Assembly (NCBI GenBank): GCA_963735595.1 | Contig: CAVTLK010000001.1 | Coordinates: forward strand, 448,001-512,000 | Reading direction: 5' to 3' | Length of the DNA: 64,000 nt | DNA from: an uncultured delta proteobacterium | GTDB lineage: Bacteria > Desulfobacterota > Zymogenia > Zymogenales > Zymogenaceae | Shown: positions 14,011 to 22,832 of the stretch, in pieces | Numbering within the stretch: position 1 is the first letter of the stretch | Layout: each line of letters starts with the position of its first letter | Translations under genes and position numbers: made by a program | The notes under the pieces: generated by a model | The model's input: the letters and a program-made list of their open reading frames with translations, nothing else | The model's database searches: none | Told to the model about the DNA's origin: nothing

Positions 14011-14165
14011 TATCGGTCTCTTTCGTTATCGGATCATTCTCTGCCGGTTCGATATCACCATCATGTAGTAACGTAATTACGTATCATATATTTCTGCGAT
14101 TTGCAAGACTAATAGTAATTGGCCCGACCCGGTATTCGGTTTTTCGGAGATTCGGTCCCAGCTCG

Positions 14166-14174
14166 TGGTACAAT
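14166..14174 (+). promoter_or_regulatory. Extended -10 element, probably giving a leaderless mRNA
   Basis: TGGTACAAT (TGnTAnnnT) ends 6 nt before ATG 14181; no strong SD. Confidence 0.5.
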
Positions 14175-14180
14175 GGACCG

Positions 14181-16494
14181 ATGACGAGCGCACAACCGCA
14201 GCGACACGCCTATATATCGGCCGTTACGCTGGGCGGCATATCCATAGCCGGCCAGATTGTGCTCATGCGGGAGATCATGATCCTCTTCTACGGCAATGAG
14301 CTGTCGGCCGGCGTCTGTCTCTTTTCATGGCTCCTCTGGACTTCGGCGGGGGCCTTCATAGGCACCGCTCTCACTAAACGTAACATCACCGGTCCAAGAG
14401 CCCTCCCCGCCCTGCTTGCGGCCGTTGCCGTGCTGCTTCCGGCAACCGTCGTCCTCTGCGCGTGTCGCAAAGACGATCGTCGGAATATCCCAGAGTGAGA
14501 TCATCGGCATCGTCCCGATGGCGGCTATTGCCGCGGTCGTCCTTTTGCCCTTCTGTTTCTTCTCTGGTCTGCTCTTCCCCCTGCTCATACGGACAGCCGT
14601 CCCCGACAGCCGGAACGACCGTGATGCCCCTGCCCGCATATACCTGTTCGAGTCCATCGGCTCATCACTCTTCGGAGTCATTACCGCCCTTGTCCTCATC
14701 CGGCATTTTGACGCCCTGACGGTCGCGTTTTTTGTCGCCGCCATTGCCGGCCTGGCGGCACTGTACATCTCGGTTTCCACCCGCCGCCCCGCGGCGGCCG
14801 TACTATCGGTCCTCGTCGTCTCTCTTTTCGTCCTTCAGCCCCTGTTTTCTATTCCCGACATCGCCGCGATCACCCGGCAGCTCCAGTGGAAGGGCTTCAC
14901 GGTGGTCGAATCGACCGATTCCGTTTACGGAAACCTCACCGTGACGCGGGCCGAAAGCCAGACCACTGTGTATGACAGCGGGGTACTTTCGTTTACCTAC
15001 CCGGACGTCATGAACAGCGAGCTCGGCGTGATCTATCCCCTCCTCCTTCACCCCCGGCCCGTGAGGGTGCTCCTTGTGGGCGGCGGGATATCCTCGACAC
15101 TCTCACAGATACTCAAGCACCCCTCGATTTCGGCAATCGATTACGTGGAGCTTGACCCCGCCCTCATCGACCTCGGTGTAAGAAACCTCCCCTCCGAGGC
15201 GACCCGCCCGCTGTCGGACCGCCGGGTTCGGGTCATCCACGAGGATGGACGTCTCTTCATAAGGGAGGCCCGTGATCGGTACGACGTAATCATCGTCAAC
15301 ATGGCCGACCCCGTCAACGCGCGCATAAACCGCTACTTTACGCGGGAATTCTTCCGCGAGGCGAAACGGATCCTTGCCCCCGGCGGCGTCTTCTCTATCT
15401 CGGTAGGCTCATCGGAGGAGATTATCAGCCCGGTGCTCGCCTCCTTCCTCGGGAGCGTCTCCCGGACGCTGTCGTCGGACTTTTCCCATACGGCGGTCGT
15501 GCCCGGGGGCACCGCGTTCTTCGTGGCGTCCGACCTCCCGTCCCGGGTGGACATCGACCCCGCGGTACTCGCCGCCCGTATGAAGGATCGCGATATCGTA
15601 AACAGCTACGTCACCGAGCAGTATCTCCTTTATCAGCTGAGCGACGAGCGGATTGAGTACGTTCGCCGAAGTATTGAAGGCGCGAAAACGGCGGGGAACA
15701 ACACGGACCTCACTCCCACGGTCTACTACTACAATATGGTGCTCAGGAGCTACTGGCTCTCACCCGGGCTGAAGATCGCCCTTGCCGACTTCGCCGGATC
15801 ACGGCCGGTCCTACCGATCACGGCGATTATCCTGGCGGCGGTCGTCTGCGGCGCTCTTATCAGAATCCGCGCCCGGAAACCGGCCTCGCTACCGGCGGCA
15901 ACCGTCGTTCCCGCGGCGTTGACCTCCGGCTTTTCCGAGATCGCGATTACCGTCGTTATCATCATCGCGTTCCAGACCTTCCGCGGCTACGTCTATTCGG
16001 GCCTCGGCCTGATCATCTCATCGTTCATGATCGGCCTTGCCATAGGAACCGGGGCCGCCCGCTCCCGGATAGGCATATTCGCCCGCCCCTGGCGGCTCCT
16101 TGGTATCGTCCAGTTGCTCTACGGCGCGTTGTGCCTGTCGATTGTCGGCGTCCTCTTCTTCTTTTCGACGTACGGATCGGGGGGATGGCCCTGGGGACCT
16201 GCCGCCGTCTTTTCACTGCTGAACATGCTCTGCGGGATACTCGCCGGTTTTCACTACGTTACCGCGGTGCGATCTCTTGTCGTCTCGGGCCTTACGGCCG
16301 ACGCGGGGGGGTGGGTCTACGGGATGAACCTTGCGGGCGCGGCGGGAGGGGCAATTCTCGCCTCGGTGGTCATGATACCGCTGTGGGGATTGGTCACGAC
16401 CCTGCTGCTGGTGCTGGCGGCAAACCTGTGCGCTGCGGCGGTTGTCGGAATCGGGGCAGGATATATCGGCGAGAATAACACACGGCGCAGATAG
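14181..16494 (+). CDS. Polytopic membrane protein with central spermidine-synthase-like SAM-binding domain (frameshift near 14460)
   Basis: QIVLMRE..FYGNEL, YLFESIGS, SVYGNL, VLLVGGG, YVELDP, HEDGR, YDVIIVN, NRYFTREFF, NTDLTP, FQTFRGYVY; TM blocks on both sides. Confidence 0.82.
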
Positions 16495-16531
16495 AACCAG
16501 CGCCGTCCTCGAAAGAGACGATCATCCATTC

Positions 16532-17757
16532 TCAGACGCCCTTCGGCGCCTCCCATATCCCCGCGATCGGGTATCCGCAAAACGAGCACTTCCCTTTCTT
16601 GATCTTTACCTCTCCCACGAAGTACCCCATACGAAAGATTAGCGTCTTCCCGCACGTGGGGCAGTAGGTGGACTCGTATTTATGGCCCGGGACGTTGCCG
16701 ACGTAGACGTATTCGAGGCCGGCCTTTCGGGCGGCGGTATGCGCGGCTTCAAGCGTCTCTACCGGCGTGCTCGGGAGGTTGGTGAGCCGATACATCGGGG
16801 TGAACCGGGAAAAATGGAGCGGCGTCTCTTTGCCGACCTTATCCCTGATCCACTCGCACATCCTGGTGATCGTCGGGAGGTCGTCGTTCCTGGTGGGAAC
16901 GATCAGCGTCGTGATCTCCACGTGGACGCCCGCCTTCTTGTATCCCGCGATCGAGTCGAGCACCGGTTTAAGCCTGCCATCGGTCATCGATGAGTAATAG
17001 TCCTCGGTAAACCCCTTGAGGTCGATGTTGGCCGCCGTCAGGTATTTGGAAAGCTCGGCCCGCGGCCCGGGGTTGATATACCCGTTTGAATGCATGACGT
17101 TGATCAAGCCCGGCCTTCTTGACGGCCCTGGCGCAGTCCAGCATGTATTCGTAGAAAATCGTCGGCTCCACGTAGGTGTAGGCGACGCTCGCGGATCTCG
17201 ATGATTCGTGCCTCCCGTGCCAGCGCCGCCGGGCTAAGCCGGTAATTATCGGTGTTTTCCGGCCGGGCCTGGGAGATGTCGTAGTTCTGGCAGAATTTGC
17301 AGGTGAGGTTGCAGCCGGCGGTGGCGATGGAATATGACGTCGTTCCGGGAAGGCAGTGAAAGAACGGCTTTTTCTCTATGGGGTCGACGTGGATCGCGCA
17401 GGGGTTGCCCCATACGAGGCTGTAGTATTTCCCCTTCCTGTTCTCCCTGACCTCGCAGTATCCCCGTTTGCCGTCGGCCACCGTGCATCCCCGGGGACAC
17501 AGGAGGCACATTACCGTTCCATCGCCCAGCGGGGTATACAAGGGGGACTCCTTCGGTACCATGTAACCCCGTTCGGGATACCCCATTTCGTCGCTGCCGT
17601 CGGACGTTCCGATCGGCTCGGCACAGGCGGAAAGCGGCAGGCCCGCGGCGCAATACCCCAGGGCGCACGCGGATGCCCCCGTCAGGAATTCCCGCCGGGA
17701 AAGCCCCCCCGCATTTCTACCGACTACTTTTCTCTTACCCTCACCTGCCCCGTCCAC
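16532..17757 (-). CDS. amrS: AmmeMemoRadiSam system radical SAM enzyme with Tat-like leader (frameshifts near 17190 and 17105)
   Basis: CLLCPRGC, DPIEKKPFFH, radical SAM motif CNLTCKFC-QN, EPTIFYEY, NIDLKGF, PLHFSRF, YVYVGNV, CPTCG, CSFCG; N-terminal SRREFL. Confidence 0.92.
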
Positions 17758-17760
17758 AGT

Positions 17761-18307
17761 CTATTCCTCCGAGAAAGCCTCCGTCGTGAAGATATAGAGT
17801 TGGGCGTCCTGCTCTTTCCAGTCGTTCGGAAGGAGACGGGCCTTCACGCAGAGATTTTCGAGGTACTCGTTGAGCGTCCACCCCTGCTGGACTGGAACCT
17901 CCGGAAGGAAGAGGCCCGAGTTGCCTCCCTTTCCGAATTACTACCCCGTGCGTCCCGACGATGATCTCGTCGACGCTCTTTATCGGTTTTAGCTCCGATA
18001 GTACCGAGACTTCGATAGTGATATCTTTGAGCTCCGCTTTCGTCACCGGGTTGTCAGAGAATCGATAGTCGTAGACTGCCCCGAGGGCACCAAGCGATAC
18101 CGTTTCGTACAGGGGATAGACCGGCTCGATATAGCCGACGCAACCTCGCAGCTCTCCATCGTTGGTGAGGGTAACGAAAGCGCCGCCGGGCCTTCGTAAG
18201 GGCGGCCGAATCGCTCTGTGAAATCGGGAACGCACTTTTCCCGACAGCTCGCACTCGATGGTCTTCCTCGCAATCGAGAGGAGTTCCTTCCTGTCGTTCG
18301 TCGTCAA
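17761..18307 (-). CDS. amrA: AmmeMemoRadiSam system protein A (AMMECR1 family); possibly fused to AmrB; frameshift near 17920
   Basis: LLSIARKTIE, GAFVTL, LRGCVG, IEVSVLS, GTHGV; shifted frame gives GLFLPEVP..QGW..YLENLC.KA..FSEE-stop. Confidence 0.88.
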
Positions 18308-19266
18308 TCCCTCCCGGCCTCGTCCCCTTCTCCCGCCGGCGGCCCTCCCCTCCCGTAGACGACCGCCGAGATGTATCCGACGACGGCATCGGTTGTCCCG
18401 GTCTCTGTCCCGCTGTCGTCATACATTGTCACAAGGACCCCCGAGGAGCCGAGAGCACTTGCCGCGAGGAGCGCCGTCACCACCGGCCCCGCCCCGCAGG
18501 CCTCGGTCTTTCGGCCGACGACGGCGTCGTACAGCCCCTCTGCGATCGTTCTTCTCGAGGAATTTCCTGAATACGCCGTCAAGCGAGCGCGCTTCCGTGC
18601 GTGAATGGTAGTGCGACAGGTCCGACGAGGCGACGATCAGGACGCGTTTATCGCCGATCGACGCCGCGATCGCCCGCGCCAGGTCCTCGCACGAGGCGAG
18701 GCTGCAGCTGCCCATGACAATGGGGACAATCTCAAAATCACCGAGAACGACCTGAAGGAACGGGACTTCGACTTCCACCGAATGCTCCGGGAGGTGGGGA
18801 AGCCCGTTTTTAGTGATGCGATCGCCCTTCTTTACGATCGAATCGATCAGGTCGGTATCAGGGCGATACGTCGCCCAGAGGCGTACGGTACGGACCGTCG
18901 GCGTATATGGCCGAGCCGTCAAACGAATAGTGATGGCTTGGACCGATAATGATGACGGTGTCGTAGGAGGTCCCGGCCAGCGCCTTGAAACCGGCGGCTG
19001 CCGTCTGGCCGGAATAGATATACCCTGCGTGGGGAGCAATGACCGCGAGCGGCCGTCCCGGCACCCTGATTGCCGGCGCTTCGGCGAGAAAACCCGTGAT
19101 CATTGCCCGAAGGTCGTTCGGATCGCCGGGATAAAAGGAACCGGCCACCGCGGGGGCCCGGGCCCGACGTCGGACCGGATAGCTCTTCACCCGACAGGCA
19201 CGCGGGGGTAATAAAAATGAGTATCAAGAACAGGGTTAGCCGGATCGCCTTCGAGTTTCGACCCAT
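18304..19266 (-). CDS. amrB: AmmeMemoRadiSam system protein B (MEMO1 family) with hydrophobic N-terminal leader; several frameshifts
   Basis: PAVAGSFYP, PHAGYIYSG, IIGPSHH, TPLG, EHSVEVEVPFLQ, SSDLSHY, EACGAGPV, VVGY over four ORF pieces. Confidence 0.88.
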
Positions 19267-19293
19267 AAGTCGTAATATCCCGATGGCTATCGG

Positions 19294-19512
19294 TCAATGA
19301 CAGCTGCCGCAGTTTTTCGACGTACATCCCCCGCAGCCGTCCCCCGACGACGCGGAGATAAACTTCTCGCCGCTCTTGACCGCACAGACCGACATTTCTT
19401 GTTAACCTGCTGTGGAGGCGCACTTAGGGCAGGAAATCTCGGCACTCCTGGACATTACCAGCTCCTCGAACTCGTTGCCGCATCCCCCGCAGACAAATTC
19501 AAATATCGGCAT
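19294..19512 (-). CDS. FmdB-family zinc ribbon protein (not in ORF track; one frameshift near 19408)
   Basis: Manual translation MPIFEFVCGGCGNEFEELV..CPKC..; C-terminus GCGGCTSKNCGSCH-stop. Confidence 0.85.
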
Positions 19513-20099
19513 ATGCTACCTCATCGACCCAGGAGCCGTCGCCCCGTTGAATCCACCAGCCTGCGCGCGCCTGATTCTGCCAGCTGTCGGCAAAGAGGCG
19601 TTCGATCTGCGGTATGGTATCGCCGCCGAGGCCGTTAGCCGACGCGATCTCCTGATAGAGGCGCCTGCGGTCGGCGTTGTCGGCGTCTACCAGTCCCCGA
19701 AGGCTGCCCGATCGCGCCGATATCCAGCCCCCCCTGGTTCCTGATCTCCAGGTACCCACGGTTGGATATCCCGATATTGCCGCCGTTATAGAAGGGCATG
19801 AGCTGCGGGAACCGTCCCTCCATGGTGGAACGAATCGCCCGTATAGCCGGCGTTGAGATATTGATATCGACCTGCGCCCATGCGCTGTCCACCAGCAGGC
19901 CGGCAAGCCTGAACGGAACGGCCAGGCGCCCCTCGGGCTTCGTGTCCGTGGCCGGCTCCGCTCCCTTCTTGTAGACGTCGTCGACGATCTCATCGGCCGC
20001 CTTCCGCACCGCTTCGGCGGGGAAATATATATTAACCGTGACGCATGCCCCGACGAGCAGCATTATCGTCAAGAGCGCGGGAATTACTTTTCTCATCAT
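19499..20099 (-). CDS. YnbE-like/YdbL (DUF1318) lipoprotein; frameshift near 19710, exact stop uncertain
   Basis: Lipobox VGAC then VTVNIYFPAEAVRKAADEIV; GISNRGYL, LVDADNADRRRLYQEIA, AGWWIQ..GSW. Confidence 0.75.
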
Positions 20100-20195
20100 G
20101 GTCAATTCCTCCTGTGGCTCCTCTGTGGCTTTCCTTGGCTCCAGTTTGTTCCTCATAGGACCCGGATTGGCTCATGGTCGGTTCCTTATTCGGAC

Positions 20196-22832
20196 CTACC
20201 TGGTTTCAATCCTGATATCTTCGGTATCCTTTACGTTTATCCGCTCCAGCCGCCGCATCATATCGTCAAAACGGATCAGGTTGTTGGGGTTCTGATTGAT
20301 TACGTTGATGCCGGTAAGGCCGCTGCGCTTGATGAAATACTCGGTGTCGCCTTCGTGAATCATGCCCCTGAGCGTAAAATAGTCGTTCTTGAGCTCGAGG
20401 TGAATGCCGATCCCCGAATAGTTATACTCGTGGACGAATCGGTTAAGGCCCGTGCGGAGCAGCGCCCGAAAACAGGGTCGATCCCGATCCGAGGATCGTC
20501 AGCTTATCGACGAATTCGACGCTGACGCGCTTATCCACTCCCCGTCTATCGACCGTCCTGACATCTAATACAAATCGTCTCCGGCCCCCCGTAGGAGAAA
20601 ATAAGACCGGAGATTCCGCCTTCGGCGATCCCGGTGACCCTGCCCACGTCGATCGTTTGGGTCAGCGCTCCAAGGTCGATATCGGCAAACGTCACGTCAC
20701 ACCCGAGCCTTCGCCCCGCATCAAAGATATCCTGACCCCATATGTTTTCGATGCGTACCGCTCCATTAAATATTTTAGCAGTAAGGGTGCCCGAAGTAAA
20801 CAGCTTTTTTTCCTCGATCCTGACCTCCGCGAGCTCGCCGATGAGCTCCCCCTTCAGAGCGACAAGCTTTTCCTTCGGGAAGATCGCCGCGATATTGATT
20901 CCTTTCACGGCCAGCGACAGGCGCATCGTTCTGTTTTCGTCGAATATGTTTTCCCCCGAGCTCCACCGATCGTTACGGAGCCGCCGGCTGCCGAAACCAC
21001 AACGGTATCCTTCAGGGCAAAGGCGTTTTTCGTAAGCGCCGGTGATAACGTCACCGCACCGATATCGACCCCGCCCAGCATCGCGTGGGAAACGGTTACC
21101 TCTCCGAAGTCACCGGGGATAAGCTCCGGCGTTGCGTCTTTATTCGACCCGTCTGAAAGGTCGAAGGAAAACGGCATAGAAGCCGAAATCCCCTCGACCT
21201 TCGTGGAAATACCGGGGAAATCAAGGGTAGCGCCGACGATATCCAGTCTGCCCGAGACACGCGGCGCCGCAAGGTTTCCCCCTATCCTGCCCGATGAATT
21301 CAGAGAACCGGCGACGGCGCCCGTATAAAGCCAGGCGATGCGGTTCATGAAGTAGTTTCGAAAGAGGATGTCGTAGGCCGCTGCCATGTCGCGGACCTTC
21401 ATGCGGTACGAGAGATCCCCGCTCATACCGGCCCGCCCGGAATCGATATCTCCGAAAATATCCGCCGAGAGGACCGAGGGTATCGATACCTCGCCCGTAA
21501 AGTTCTTGACGCCCCCGTCGTCTTTCAGCCGGCCCGATGCCTTGAGGGAGATCCGGTGCTTTTCGAAATTGACGAAGAGGCCCGAGAGGAGGAGCCCGAA
21601 ATCATGGGCGGTGAGCTCGCCGTTAAAAAAGAATCCCTCCCTGATATCGTCCCTGAACTGAATCCGCGCCGACCCGGTAATACCCTGACCCAGGTAGCCG
21701 GAATCGGGAGACGAAAATCCGGCATTGACGAGATCGACCTCGAGATTGCCGGCAATGCTCCTGTCACCCGCATCGACAGTCCCCATCGTCAGGAGGCTTT
21801 TCGCCCGCCCCGTGATCCCCCAACCGGCAAGGAATTCGGGCATATAGTCCCCGAGGCGGCGGAGGTTCGCAGACGAGAGCATCAGCGAATCCGCCTCCGA
21901 CGTAACCTTCCATTCCCCGTTCTTCTCGACCGCTAAGATTCAGCAATACGTCCCCGAAACCGGGGCACCGAGAGCGCCGCGTCTCTCAGTATAAAGGCGC
22001 CGTCGTTTTCTTTCTCCATCTCGCCCGTGGCCGTGATCCCGTCCAGCATAAGGCCGCGCCCCTCCGCGGCAATCGAGAGGCCGTCGATCGAGATGTCCGT
22101 CGCTTCGACGGTATCACGGTTAAACCGTATGTGCGCCGTAACGTGTTTGCCCGCGAATAGAAAATCTCCGATCCGATACCCCGACTCTCCCATCCTGACC
22201 GCCCCCCGGGCCGAAACGTCCGGATAGGTTCCCGCAACACGCATCCGGCCGTAAAACGGCCCGTCGAGCATCGAGCCCTCGTTTATCCCTTCCGTCCGCG
22301 CCGATCCGGCAATCGTGAGGGACTCGCCCACGATGCCGTGTTCATAGCTCATATCCACGCCCTGGAAGATGTAGCGCCCTGACGTGTCGATCAGGACAAG
22401 CTCGCCGTTTTCGACGGTGATATCCAGCTCCATAATCCTCTGGATGAGACGATCCCCGTCGCCTCCACCTTCCCGTGACACATCCAGAGATATCGAGGGA
22501 TTATGAACGGTGATTTTTTTTATTCTCAGGGGAGTGGTCAGGCCGAGGCCGAACTCCAGTACCGCCGGGCCGGATGAAAAGACGACCGGGCCGGTCACCA
22601 GGTCCATCCCTTCCACGATTACCGCGCCGGGAGAGACCAGCCGTATCCCGGTTAGATACACCCGGTAGCCGACGGTTCGTTCGACGACACGCCCGACCGC
22701 ATCGCCGATCAGTTCGTCTCCGAAATAGTAGTAGAAGACCGATATCGCCGTTAGCGACCCGAAGAAAACGGTCAGGCAGCAGATCCAGATGATCCGGGCG
22801 AGGCGGGTCTTTTTCCATAGCCTCTTGGACAT
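20196..22832 (-). CDS. YdbH/AsmA-like beta-rich envelope protein; multiple frameshifts
   Basis: N-terminal TM anchor, long Gly/hydrophobic beta-strand repeats, C-terminal YNYSGIGIHLELKND..GINVINQN..FDDMMRRLERI; directly upstream of YdbL-like gene. Confidence 0.6.

Follow-up and report, generated by a model that had tools for sequence, protein, structure and literature searches.

An export-tagged variant of the AmmeMemoRadiSam system with a transporter-like membrane partner

The window analysed here, a stretch of 64,000 nucleotides from an uncultured delta proteobacterium of the family Zymogenaceae (contig CAVTLK010000001.1, positions 448,001 to 512,000), contains a locus that is a real, widespread, export-tagged variant of the known but unexplained AmmeMemoRadiSam system, with a specific transporter-like partner. 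It comprises amrS (16532–17757, minus strand), which encodes a radical S-adenosylmethionine (SAM) enzyme of about 407 amino acids with an N-terminal leader of the twin-arginine translocation (Tat) type; a fused amrB-amrA gene (17761–19266, minus strand), whose product of about 499 amino acids joins a Memo domain to an AMMECR1 domain; and, convergent with amrS, a gene on the plus strand (14181–16494) for a membrane protein of the major facilitator superfamily (MFS) fold with an inserted spermidine-synthase-like, SAM-type domain. The original prediction, made from the sequence of the window, had placed the module at 16532–19266 and missed both this fourth gene and the fusion.

Locus structure and export leaders

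The amrS gene starts at a GTG codon at 17757, 3 nt behind the stop of the upstream gene and 8 nt behind a GGAGG ribosome-binding site (17766–17770, minus strand) that lies within the 3' end of amrB-amrA. From this start a single frame runs through an n-region, S-R-R-E-F-L (the arginine pair, RR, at 17697–17692), a hydrophobic (h-) region and L-S-A-C, together the leader (17623–17757, minus strand), into the TIGR04337 core, where the CxxxCxxC motif is intact at 17313–17290; leader and motif were both predicted correctly. A start downstream of the RR pair was looked for, and the start lies upstream of it; MGYPER was rejected as the beginning of the protein because its methionine is not conserved, being replaced by isoleucine in three of the four relatives compared. 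The AmrS of an intact relative scores 364 bits against TIGR04337 (cut-off 220), and the window copy matches it in two pieces of 117 and 194 bits. Six-frame translation of the genome (7.26 million residues) yields 11 instances of [ST]RRxFL with an h-region behind it, or about 9e-5 per 60 residues, and all five family members retain the two leader arginines although the codons have changed synonymously. Conservation of the leader extends to the close homologs, as 117 of the best 120 have an RR or KR motif (84 and 33, respectively); of the three that the motif leaves unmatched, one is Tat-like by eye and two begin inside the leader. The window genome also encodes tatC (229 bits, over the cut-off). 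Judged by its sequence, the AmrS leader is real and of the Tat type. The module had been thought to be addressed to the cell envelope; targeting of AmrS there is strongly supported by these comparisons, and from them we infer the localisation itself.

The suggestion that AmrS is a Tat lipoprotein would apply more narrowly. L-S-A-C, a possible lipobox, is present, with its cysteine codon at 17625–17623, and the same letters overlap an A-x-A signal peptidase I site. The lipobox pattern is found in 12 of the 16 nearest homologs (the cysteine is kept in 14 by eye) and in none of the next 104, and two close homologs swap the cysteine and retain the A-x-A site. A clade-wide lipobox was therefore rejected, and by this comparison the AmrS lipobox is a family-level trait.

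The genes amrB and amrA are fused, and the locus is therefore not a trio of genes as had been claimed; separate genes were rejected because all six relatives that hold the locus have one intact open reading frame (ORF) of about 499 codons with a hydrophobic leader. The Sec-type leader described earlier is present (19198–19266, minus strand): it starts at the ATG at 19266, has a possible lipobox cysteine at its end, and continues to PAVAGSFYP across an extra base near 19165 that is absent in the relatives. A hydrophobic leader was seen by eye in all 36 fusions inspected and a lipobox-like pattern in 11 of them. The fusion of an intact relative scores 269 bits against TIGR04336 (cut-off 26) and 148 bits against TIGR04335 (cut-off 99); the window copy matches the two models in pieces. 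The fusion keeps a His-His-Cys-type metal site and the RGC(I/V)G and DxRF motifs (H40 97%, H72 97%, C217 100%, R-G-C 100%, D359 and R361 100%; n=39), with the third Memo metal ligand matched by motif and the direct alignment to MEMO1 spanning residues 36–224; the metal-site and RGC-hydrophobic-G motifs are also found in the window copy. We note that the 603 amino acid product of locus L044 (1330–3141, plus strand; G000:C5) combines a Tat-like leader with a divergent AMMECR1-like domain (E 9e-7) and an extended C-terminal region that has no NCBIfam match.

In the window assembly amrS carries two extra bases that are absent in relatives (near 17209 and 17106–17109), the membrane-protein gene carries one (near 14453–14458) and amrB-amrA has five net frameshifts, as a pseudogene cluster decaying in this organism might. 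Such decay is hardly credible, since almost all of the breaks are single extra bases, the neighbouring genes are broken alike and at several sites the extra base is absent in related contigs. Relative to G003, whose DNA is 90% identical, the window has 18 small gaps in 5.4 kb, chiefly single extra bases, and this comparison finds the same kind of breaks in the neighbouring genes. Contigs of related organisms (other than the window strain) lack the extra base at 14458, 17106, 17209, 18545, 18861, 19165 and 19270, and at several sites it is missing in relatives' contigs from up to three of four sequencing runs. The frameshifts across the locus are most likely assembly errors.

Distribution of the leaders and the membrane partner

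The loci compared were 20 from relatives and the 80 strongest of 598 matches among the species genomes scanned, and leader classes were assigned by pattern rules of our own and then inspected by eye. Inspection moved L095 and L097 from Tat to Sec-like and L061, L068 and L141 from no leader to Tat-like, and found spurious leader calls upstream of the Met in L104 (as Tat) and L156 (as Sec); L104 and L110 were placed in the canonical set, and the tree omits the truncated L050. Of 100 scorable AmrS rows two are leaderless and canonical and 98 are of the export type, the latter with 72 Tat-like leaders, 18 Sec-like leaders, seven split forms that have none in frame, and one cut by a contig end. Tat as the sole export route, as had been supposed, is thus not supported. 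The best 80 of the 598 matches include Thermodesulfobacteriota, Omnitrophota, Nitrospirota, Bacteroidota, Verrucomicrobiota, Acidobacteriota, Zixibacteria and others. Twenty control loci were weaker matches whose alignment begins behind the leader; in this control, which was not blind, 21 of 22 weaker AmrS matches have no leader and the one leader call is spurious.

A tatC gene over the cut-off is present in all 25 genomes with a Tat-type AmrS (in one, as fragments only), in all seven with the split form and in six of the 18 with a Sec-type leader; since those 18 genomes are small assemblies related to one another, the tracking is suggestive and not a statistical test. Each of the seven leaderless export-type AmrS genes has just downstream an ORF of 40–50 residues with a twin-arginine motif and an h-region, together with the first strand that the AmrS itself lacks, of the E-A-x-F-W/Y type (L088, L096, L100, L111, L116, L135 and L109; for example L096:8993–9163, plus strand). 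Six of these are Nitrospirota-type members and the seventh, from Omnitrophota, sits on a different branch, so the split Tat signal gene apparently arose on two branches, and AmrS would there be exported in trans by strand complementation. With its type tracking tatC and its survival as a split gene, the leader looks selected as an export signal. On the AmrS tree the Tat label is clustered (11 changes vs 38.8 when shuffled), and a 48-row subset tree, which omits the long-branch row L002, cleanly separates 25 of the 98 export-type rows from 23 of the 24 canonical rows (Shimodaira-Hasegawa-like approximate likelihood ratio test, SH-aLRT, 96). The window genome also has two leaderless AmrS paralogues and leaderless AmrB and AmrA paralogues elsewhere, and the exported set is therefore a second copy. 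In genome G020 two Tat-type AmrS genes stand in tandem (L064:6736–8951), and by score this genome has at least three export-type copies.

The membrane protein (about 776 amino acids) is found in 48 of 97 export-type loci (35 of the 61 with at least 3 kb of flank) vs none of 22 canonical loci; the fused amrB-amrA is found in 37 of the 97 and likewise in none of the 22. Among 41 genomes, 21 have a strong full-type match to the membrane protein (E < 1e-80) and 20 have an export-type AmrS, and all 20 fall among the 21, the N-terminus having been inspected for only part of the weaker AmrS copies. AmrS co-occurs with a signal-bearing AmrB, as expected; such an AmrB was seen in 15 genomes (among the window genome and 30 fetched loci) but not in G018 or G020. 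The membrane protein is the more constant companion of AmrS than AmrB-AmrA is, and since leaderless AmrB-AmrA fusions also exist and the leadered form is unseen in those two genomes, AmrS and the membrane protein make up the core.

In the model of the membrane protein (predicted local distance difference test, pLDDT, 91) the inserted domain lies between two sets of seven helices. MFS proteins match it over its whole length (VMAT2, Z 29.7, root mean square deviation 3.5, 348 aligned; SotB, Z 28.9, root mean square deviation 3.5, 355 aligned) and spermidine synthases match the insert; the top-ranking MFS rows belong to antiporters that export cations, with a margin of only a few Z units over the rest, and nucleoside and amine transporters are among the matches. 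In the average of 48 homologs both halves show an alternation of K/R-rich loops that places the insert outside. The acidic ribose- and adenine-contacting positions of the insert are conserved (E329 85%, D331 89%, D361 95%; n=48) and its Gly-rich motif is degenerate in many members. The window protein has GGGISS and N for D vs the GGGEGA and D of the Thermus enzyme, and D stands at the strand-4 catalytic position in only 3 of 43 rows. We take the acidic residue of the GGG(D/E)G motif and the catalytic Asp that ends strand 4 to be the residues on which an aminopropyltransferase depends; both are replaced, and the partner was rejected as an active spermidine synthase. Since the adenosyl-contacting acids are kept and the aminopropyltransferase residues are not, the insert looks like a binding domain with altered catalysis. 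That it faces outward and has lost the aminopropyltransferase catalytic residues is predicted with good confidence.

Proposed chemistry and its alternatives

It is assumed that radical SAM enzymes depend on the cytoplasm for their SAM and for low-potential electrons. The export leaders and the transporter-like partner with its outward SAM-type domain nevertheless make radical chemistry in the cell envelope likely, and on balance we favour the reading that the export-tagged system runs its radical SAM reactions at the outer surface of the cytoplasmic membrane and receives SAM through the MFS-fold protein. AmrS would very probably be exported by Tat folded and loaded with its clusters, perhaps lipid-anchored in this family, and meet the Sec-exported AmrB-AmrA outside. 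The MFS part could well export SAM, with the outer domain holding it or handing it over and possibly taking back 5'-deoxyadenosine. Electrons may perhaps come from a NapH-like membrane polyferredoxin and a Tat-tagged DUF362 protein, or else from a DsbD-like protein. More speculatively, AmrS might act on a protein partner and pass a radical to the invariant cysteine of the AmrA RGC(I/V)G motif, after which AmrA and the His-His-Cys iron site of AmrB might modify an envelope molecule, not RNA.

The three CxxxCxxC cysteines are invariant in all 98 aligned AmrS members, two further four-Cys sites are kept in nearly all of them, and residue conservation matches that of the cytoplasmic family. The AmrS model (pLDDT 97) has as its best structural match the pyruvate formate-lyase activating enzyme (PDB 3cb8, E 2.8e-14; template modelling score 0.81 of the target; profile E 2.7e-16 with 3cb8/3c8f), from which AmrS differs in its 19% identity, its extra N- and C-terminal four-Cys domains and its Tat leader. 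That activase has a protein loop as its substrate. The resemblance concerns the working mode only, as AmrS scores at most 45 bits against glycyl-radical activase models (cut-offs 131–430) and no glycyl-radical enzyme is among the annotated recurring neighbours of the AmrS loci. A sequence search found no solved structure in the AmrS family, and an Atlas search returned uncharacterised clusters only.

Candidate reductants among 101 loci are DUF362 proteins (21), NapH/NosR-like ferredoxins (12) and DsbD_2 membrane proteins (PF13386; 12). The last stand solely beside Sec-type AmrS, in 12 of the 18 and mostly in Omnitrophota (L087, L095, L097, L099, L106, L107, L112, L113, L114, L122, L124 and L126; for example L107:9005–9664, plus strand), and possibly keep cysteines reduced for cluster loading outside. 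On contig C2 of the window genome a Tat-tagged DUF362 gene (L185:1396–2352, minus strand, G000:C2) lies directly upstream of a Fer4_5 membrane polyferredoxin gene, and a DUF362 and Fer4_5-like pair is also seen in the AmrS loci L060, L094, L140 and L141. A second, different radical SAM enzyme with an RR-D-F-I leader and weak activase-type matches adjoins Tat-type AmrS in seven loci (L052:7350–8423, plus strand; L057, L058, L070, L074, L079 and L081). A doubtful extension of our reading would make the MFS/SAM-domain protein the SAM exporter of a general periplasmic radical SAM platform that feeds AmrS and this second Tat-tagged enzyme, while in lineages that lost Tat the enzyme might be exported unfolded by Sec and gain its iron-sulfur clusters outside with the help of the DsbD-like neighbour. 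If true, envelope chemistry would for the first time have a SAM efflux system of its own, and iron-sulfur loading would have to take place outside the cytoplasm.

Several observations weigh against chemistry at the outer face. A candidate reductant gene is absent from the window locus and none is universal elsewhere, and the cargo cannot be read from a shared MFS fold. K/R-rich stretches (3.8) also flank the SAM-type domain, and the third loop (2.1) conforms poorly to the positive-inside pattern. Sec-type leaders, in 18 members, are ill-suited to the export of a folded, cluster-loaded enzyme; tatC is still detected in six of those 18 genomes, and many of them are small assemblies, so its absence may be incompleteness. 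Leadered AmrB-AmrA was unseen among the examined loci in several genomes with Tat-type AmrS, including G018 (99% complete) and G020 (96%), and AmrA is therefore not the sole target; G030 encodes a leadered fusion as well as the membrane protein, but no export-type AmrS was found there. Homologs with the RR leader were expected to form a clade and are split off in the subset tree, but the 122-row tree does not resolve the export-type rows as one clade, with a leaderless group in the same open fork (support 82).

If the enzymes are exported with SAM already bound to AmrS and used catalytically or sparingly, the MFS protein might instead import a nucleoside- or amine-like product that its outer domain captures, as in periplasmic salvage or uptake. 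The nucleoside and amine transporters among its matches would suit this, as would the conserved adenosyl-contacting acids, though the Gly-rich motif is degenerate in many members; but a Sec-type AmrS cannot take bound SAM through the translocon, and the top MFS rows are cation exporters, if by few Z units, and we regard such a role as unlikely. It is improbable that exported AmrS is an iron-sulfur/SAM sensor or a metal-handling scaffold with the iron-binding Memo domain: its two further four-Cys sites could serve such a role, and in the available part of one report (PMC11081632) human MEMO1 uses His-His-Cys to bind Fe or Cu and no dioxygenase activity was detected, but the activase-like barrel and CxxxCxxC are fully conserved and residue conservation equals that of the cytoplasmic family. 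The leaders might also serve only as tethers on the cytoplasmic side of the membrane, with catalysis left in the cytoplasm. Radical SAM enzymes are otherwise cytoplasmic, the enzymes of the HXS antiphage system lack signal peptides and are proposed to be cytoplasmic in the available part of their description (PMC13128918), and Sec-type leaders are hard to square with cluster loading. A tether does not need RR-x-F-L, however, and the motif is kept even as a separate split gene; leader type follows tatC and the partner has a classical cleavable leader, which makes a tether very improbable.

Related systems and neighbouring genes

All three AmmeMemoRadiSam domains (TIGR04337 AmrS, TIGR04336 AmrB, TIGR04335 AmrA) are over their curated cut-offs in the intact relative, with the Memo and AMMECR1 domains fused and directly upstream of AmrS. 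The available part of PMC2034487 describes the gene-neighbourhood link of the trio and the B-A fusion and proposes transfer of an organic radical to the AMMECR1 RGC cysteine, its main text containing none of the terms "signal peptide", "secreted" and "periplasm"; a proposal that the trio modifies RNA is repeated in PMC4075521, and the system is mentioned in passing in PMC7159879, as far as the available parts of these two papers go. Unlike the system so described, that of the window bears export leaders on AmrS and AmrB-AmrA alike and is paired with a dedicated MFS/SAM-domain protein, and since neither tRNA nor rRNA is accessible to a system at work outside the cytoplasm, the RNA-base substrate of the standing proposal would be out of its reach. 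This narrows the long-open question of the function of the Memo, AMMECR1 and radical SAM trio, whose human members are disease genes.

The fusion matches human MEMO1 and archaeal AMMECR1 proteins (PDB 7kq8, 1vaj, 1zq7; E 1.5e-18 and 5.7e-25) and retains their His-His-Cys-type residues, RGC-hydrophobic-G and DxRF, but, unlike them, it is a fusion that bears a signal and is coupled to a radical SAM enzyme; the His-His-Cys site of human MEMO1 binds iron according to the available part of PMC11081632. The membrane partner is over the cut-off for the fused MFS/spermidine synthase family NF037959 (71.5/40) and far under that for the membrane polyamine aminopropyltransferase PRK03612 (128/472), whose motif residues it has replaced; unlike both, it has a second seven-helix half and is linked to exported AmrS and not to polyamine genes. 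In PspA operons a synthase domain behind a seven-helix membrane domain is described in the available part of PMC11237479. HXS resembles the window system in tying radical SAM chemistry to a periplasmic function, but in the available part of PMC13128918 its effector maturation is proposed to be cytoplasmic, and here AmrS itself is export-tagged.

With its export leaders and its own transporter-like partner, this widespread group challenges the cytoplasm-only view of radical SAM enzymes, and the membrane partner is the protein to test for SAM export. Cultured carriers among the loci (Desulfoferrobacter suflitae and Dethiosulfatarculus sandiegensis) make experimental tests practical. A 2019 study by Burroughs et al. 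reportedly extends the gene contexts of Memo, so it may mention secreted versions. Outside that study, which the search did not cover, no report of an exported AmmeMemoRadiSam form was found in the literature pairing radical SAM with export terms.

The sequencing runs listed for the locus include no RNA runs, and the small-share DNA runs are uninformative on habitat. Dense single-base insertions in the window at 14100–19560 and in its neighbours disrupt many genes, and gene calls there need checking against relatives. Upstream of amrB-amrA on the same strand, three genes kept in the family occupy 19294–22832 (minus strand): a small zinc-ribbon gene (PF09723 in a homolog), a DUF1318 gene and a long gene (about 877 amino acids in relatives) that has no Pfam or NCBIfam match. 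The three presumably resemble the YdbH-YnbE-YdbL envelope-bridge operon.

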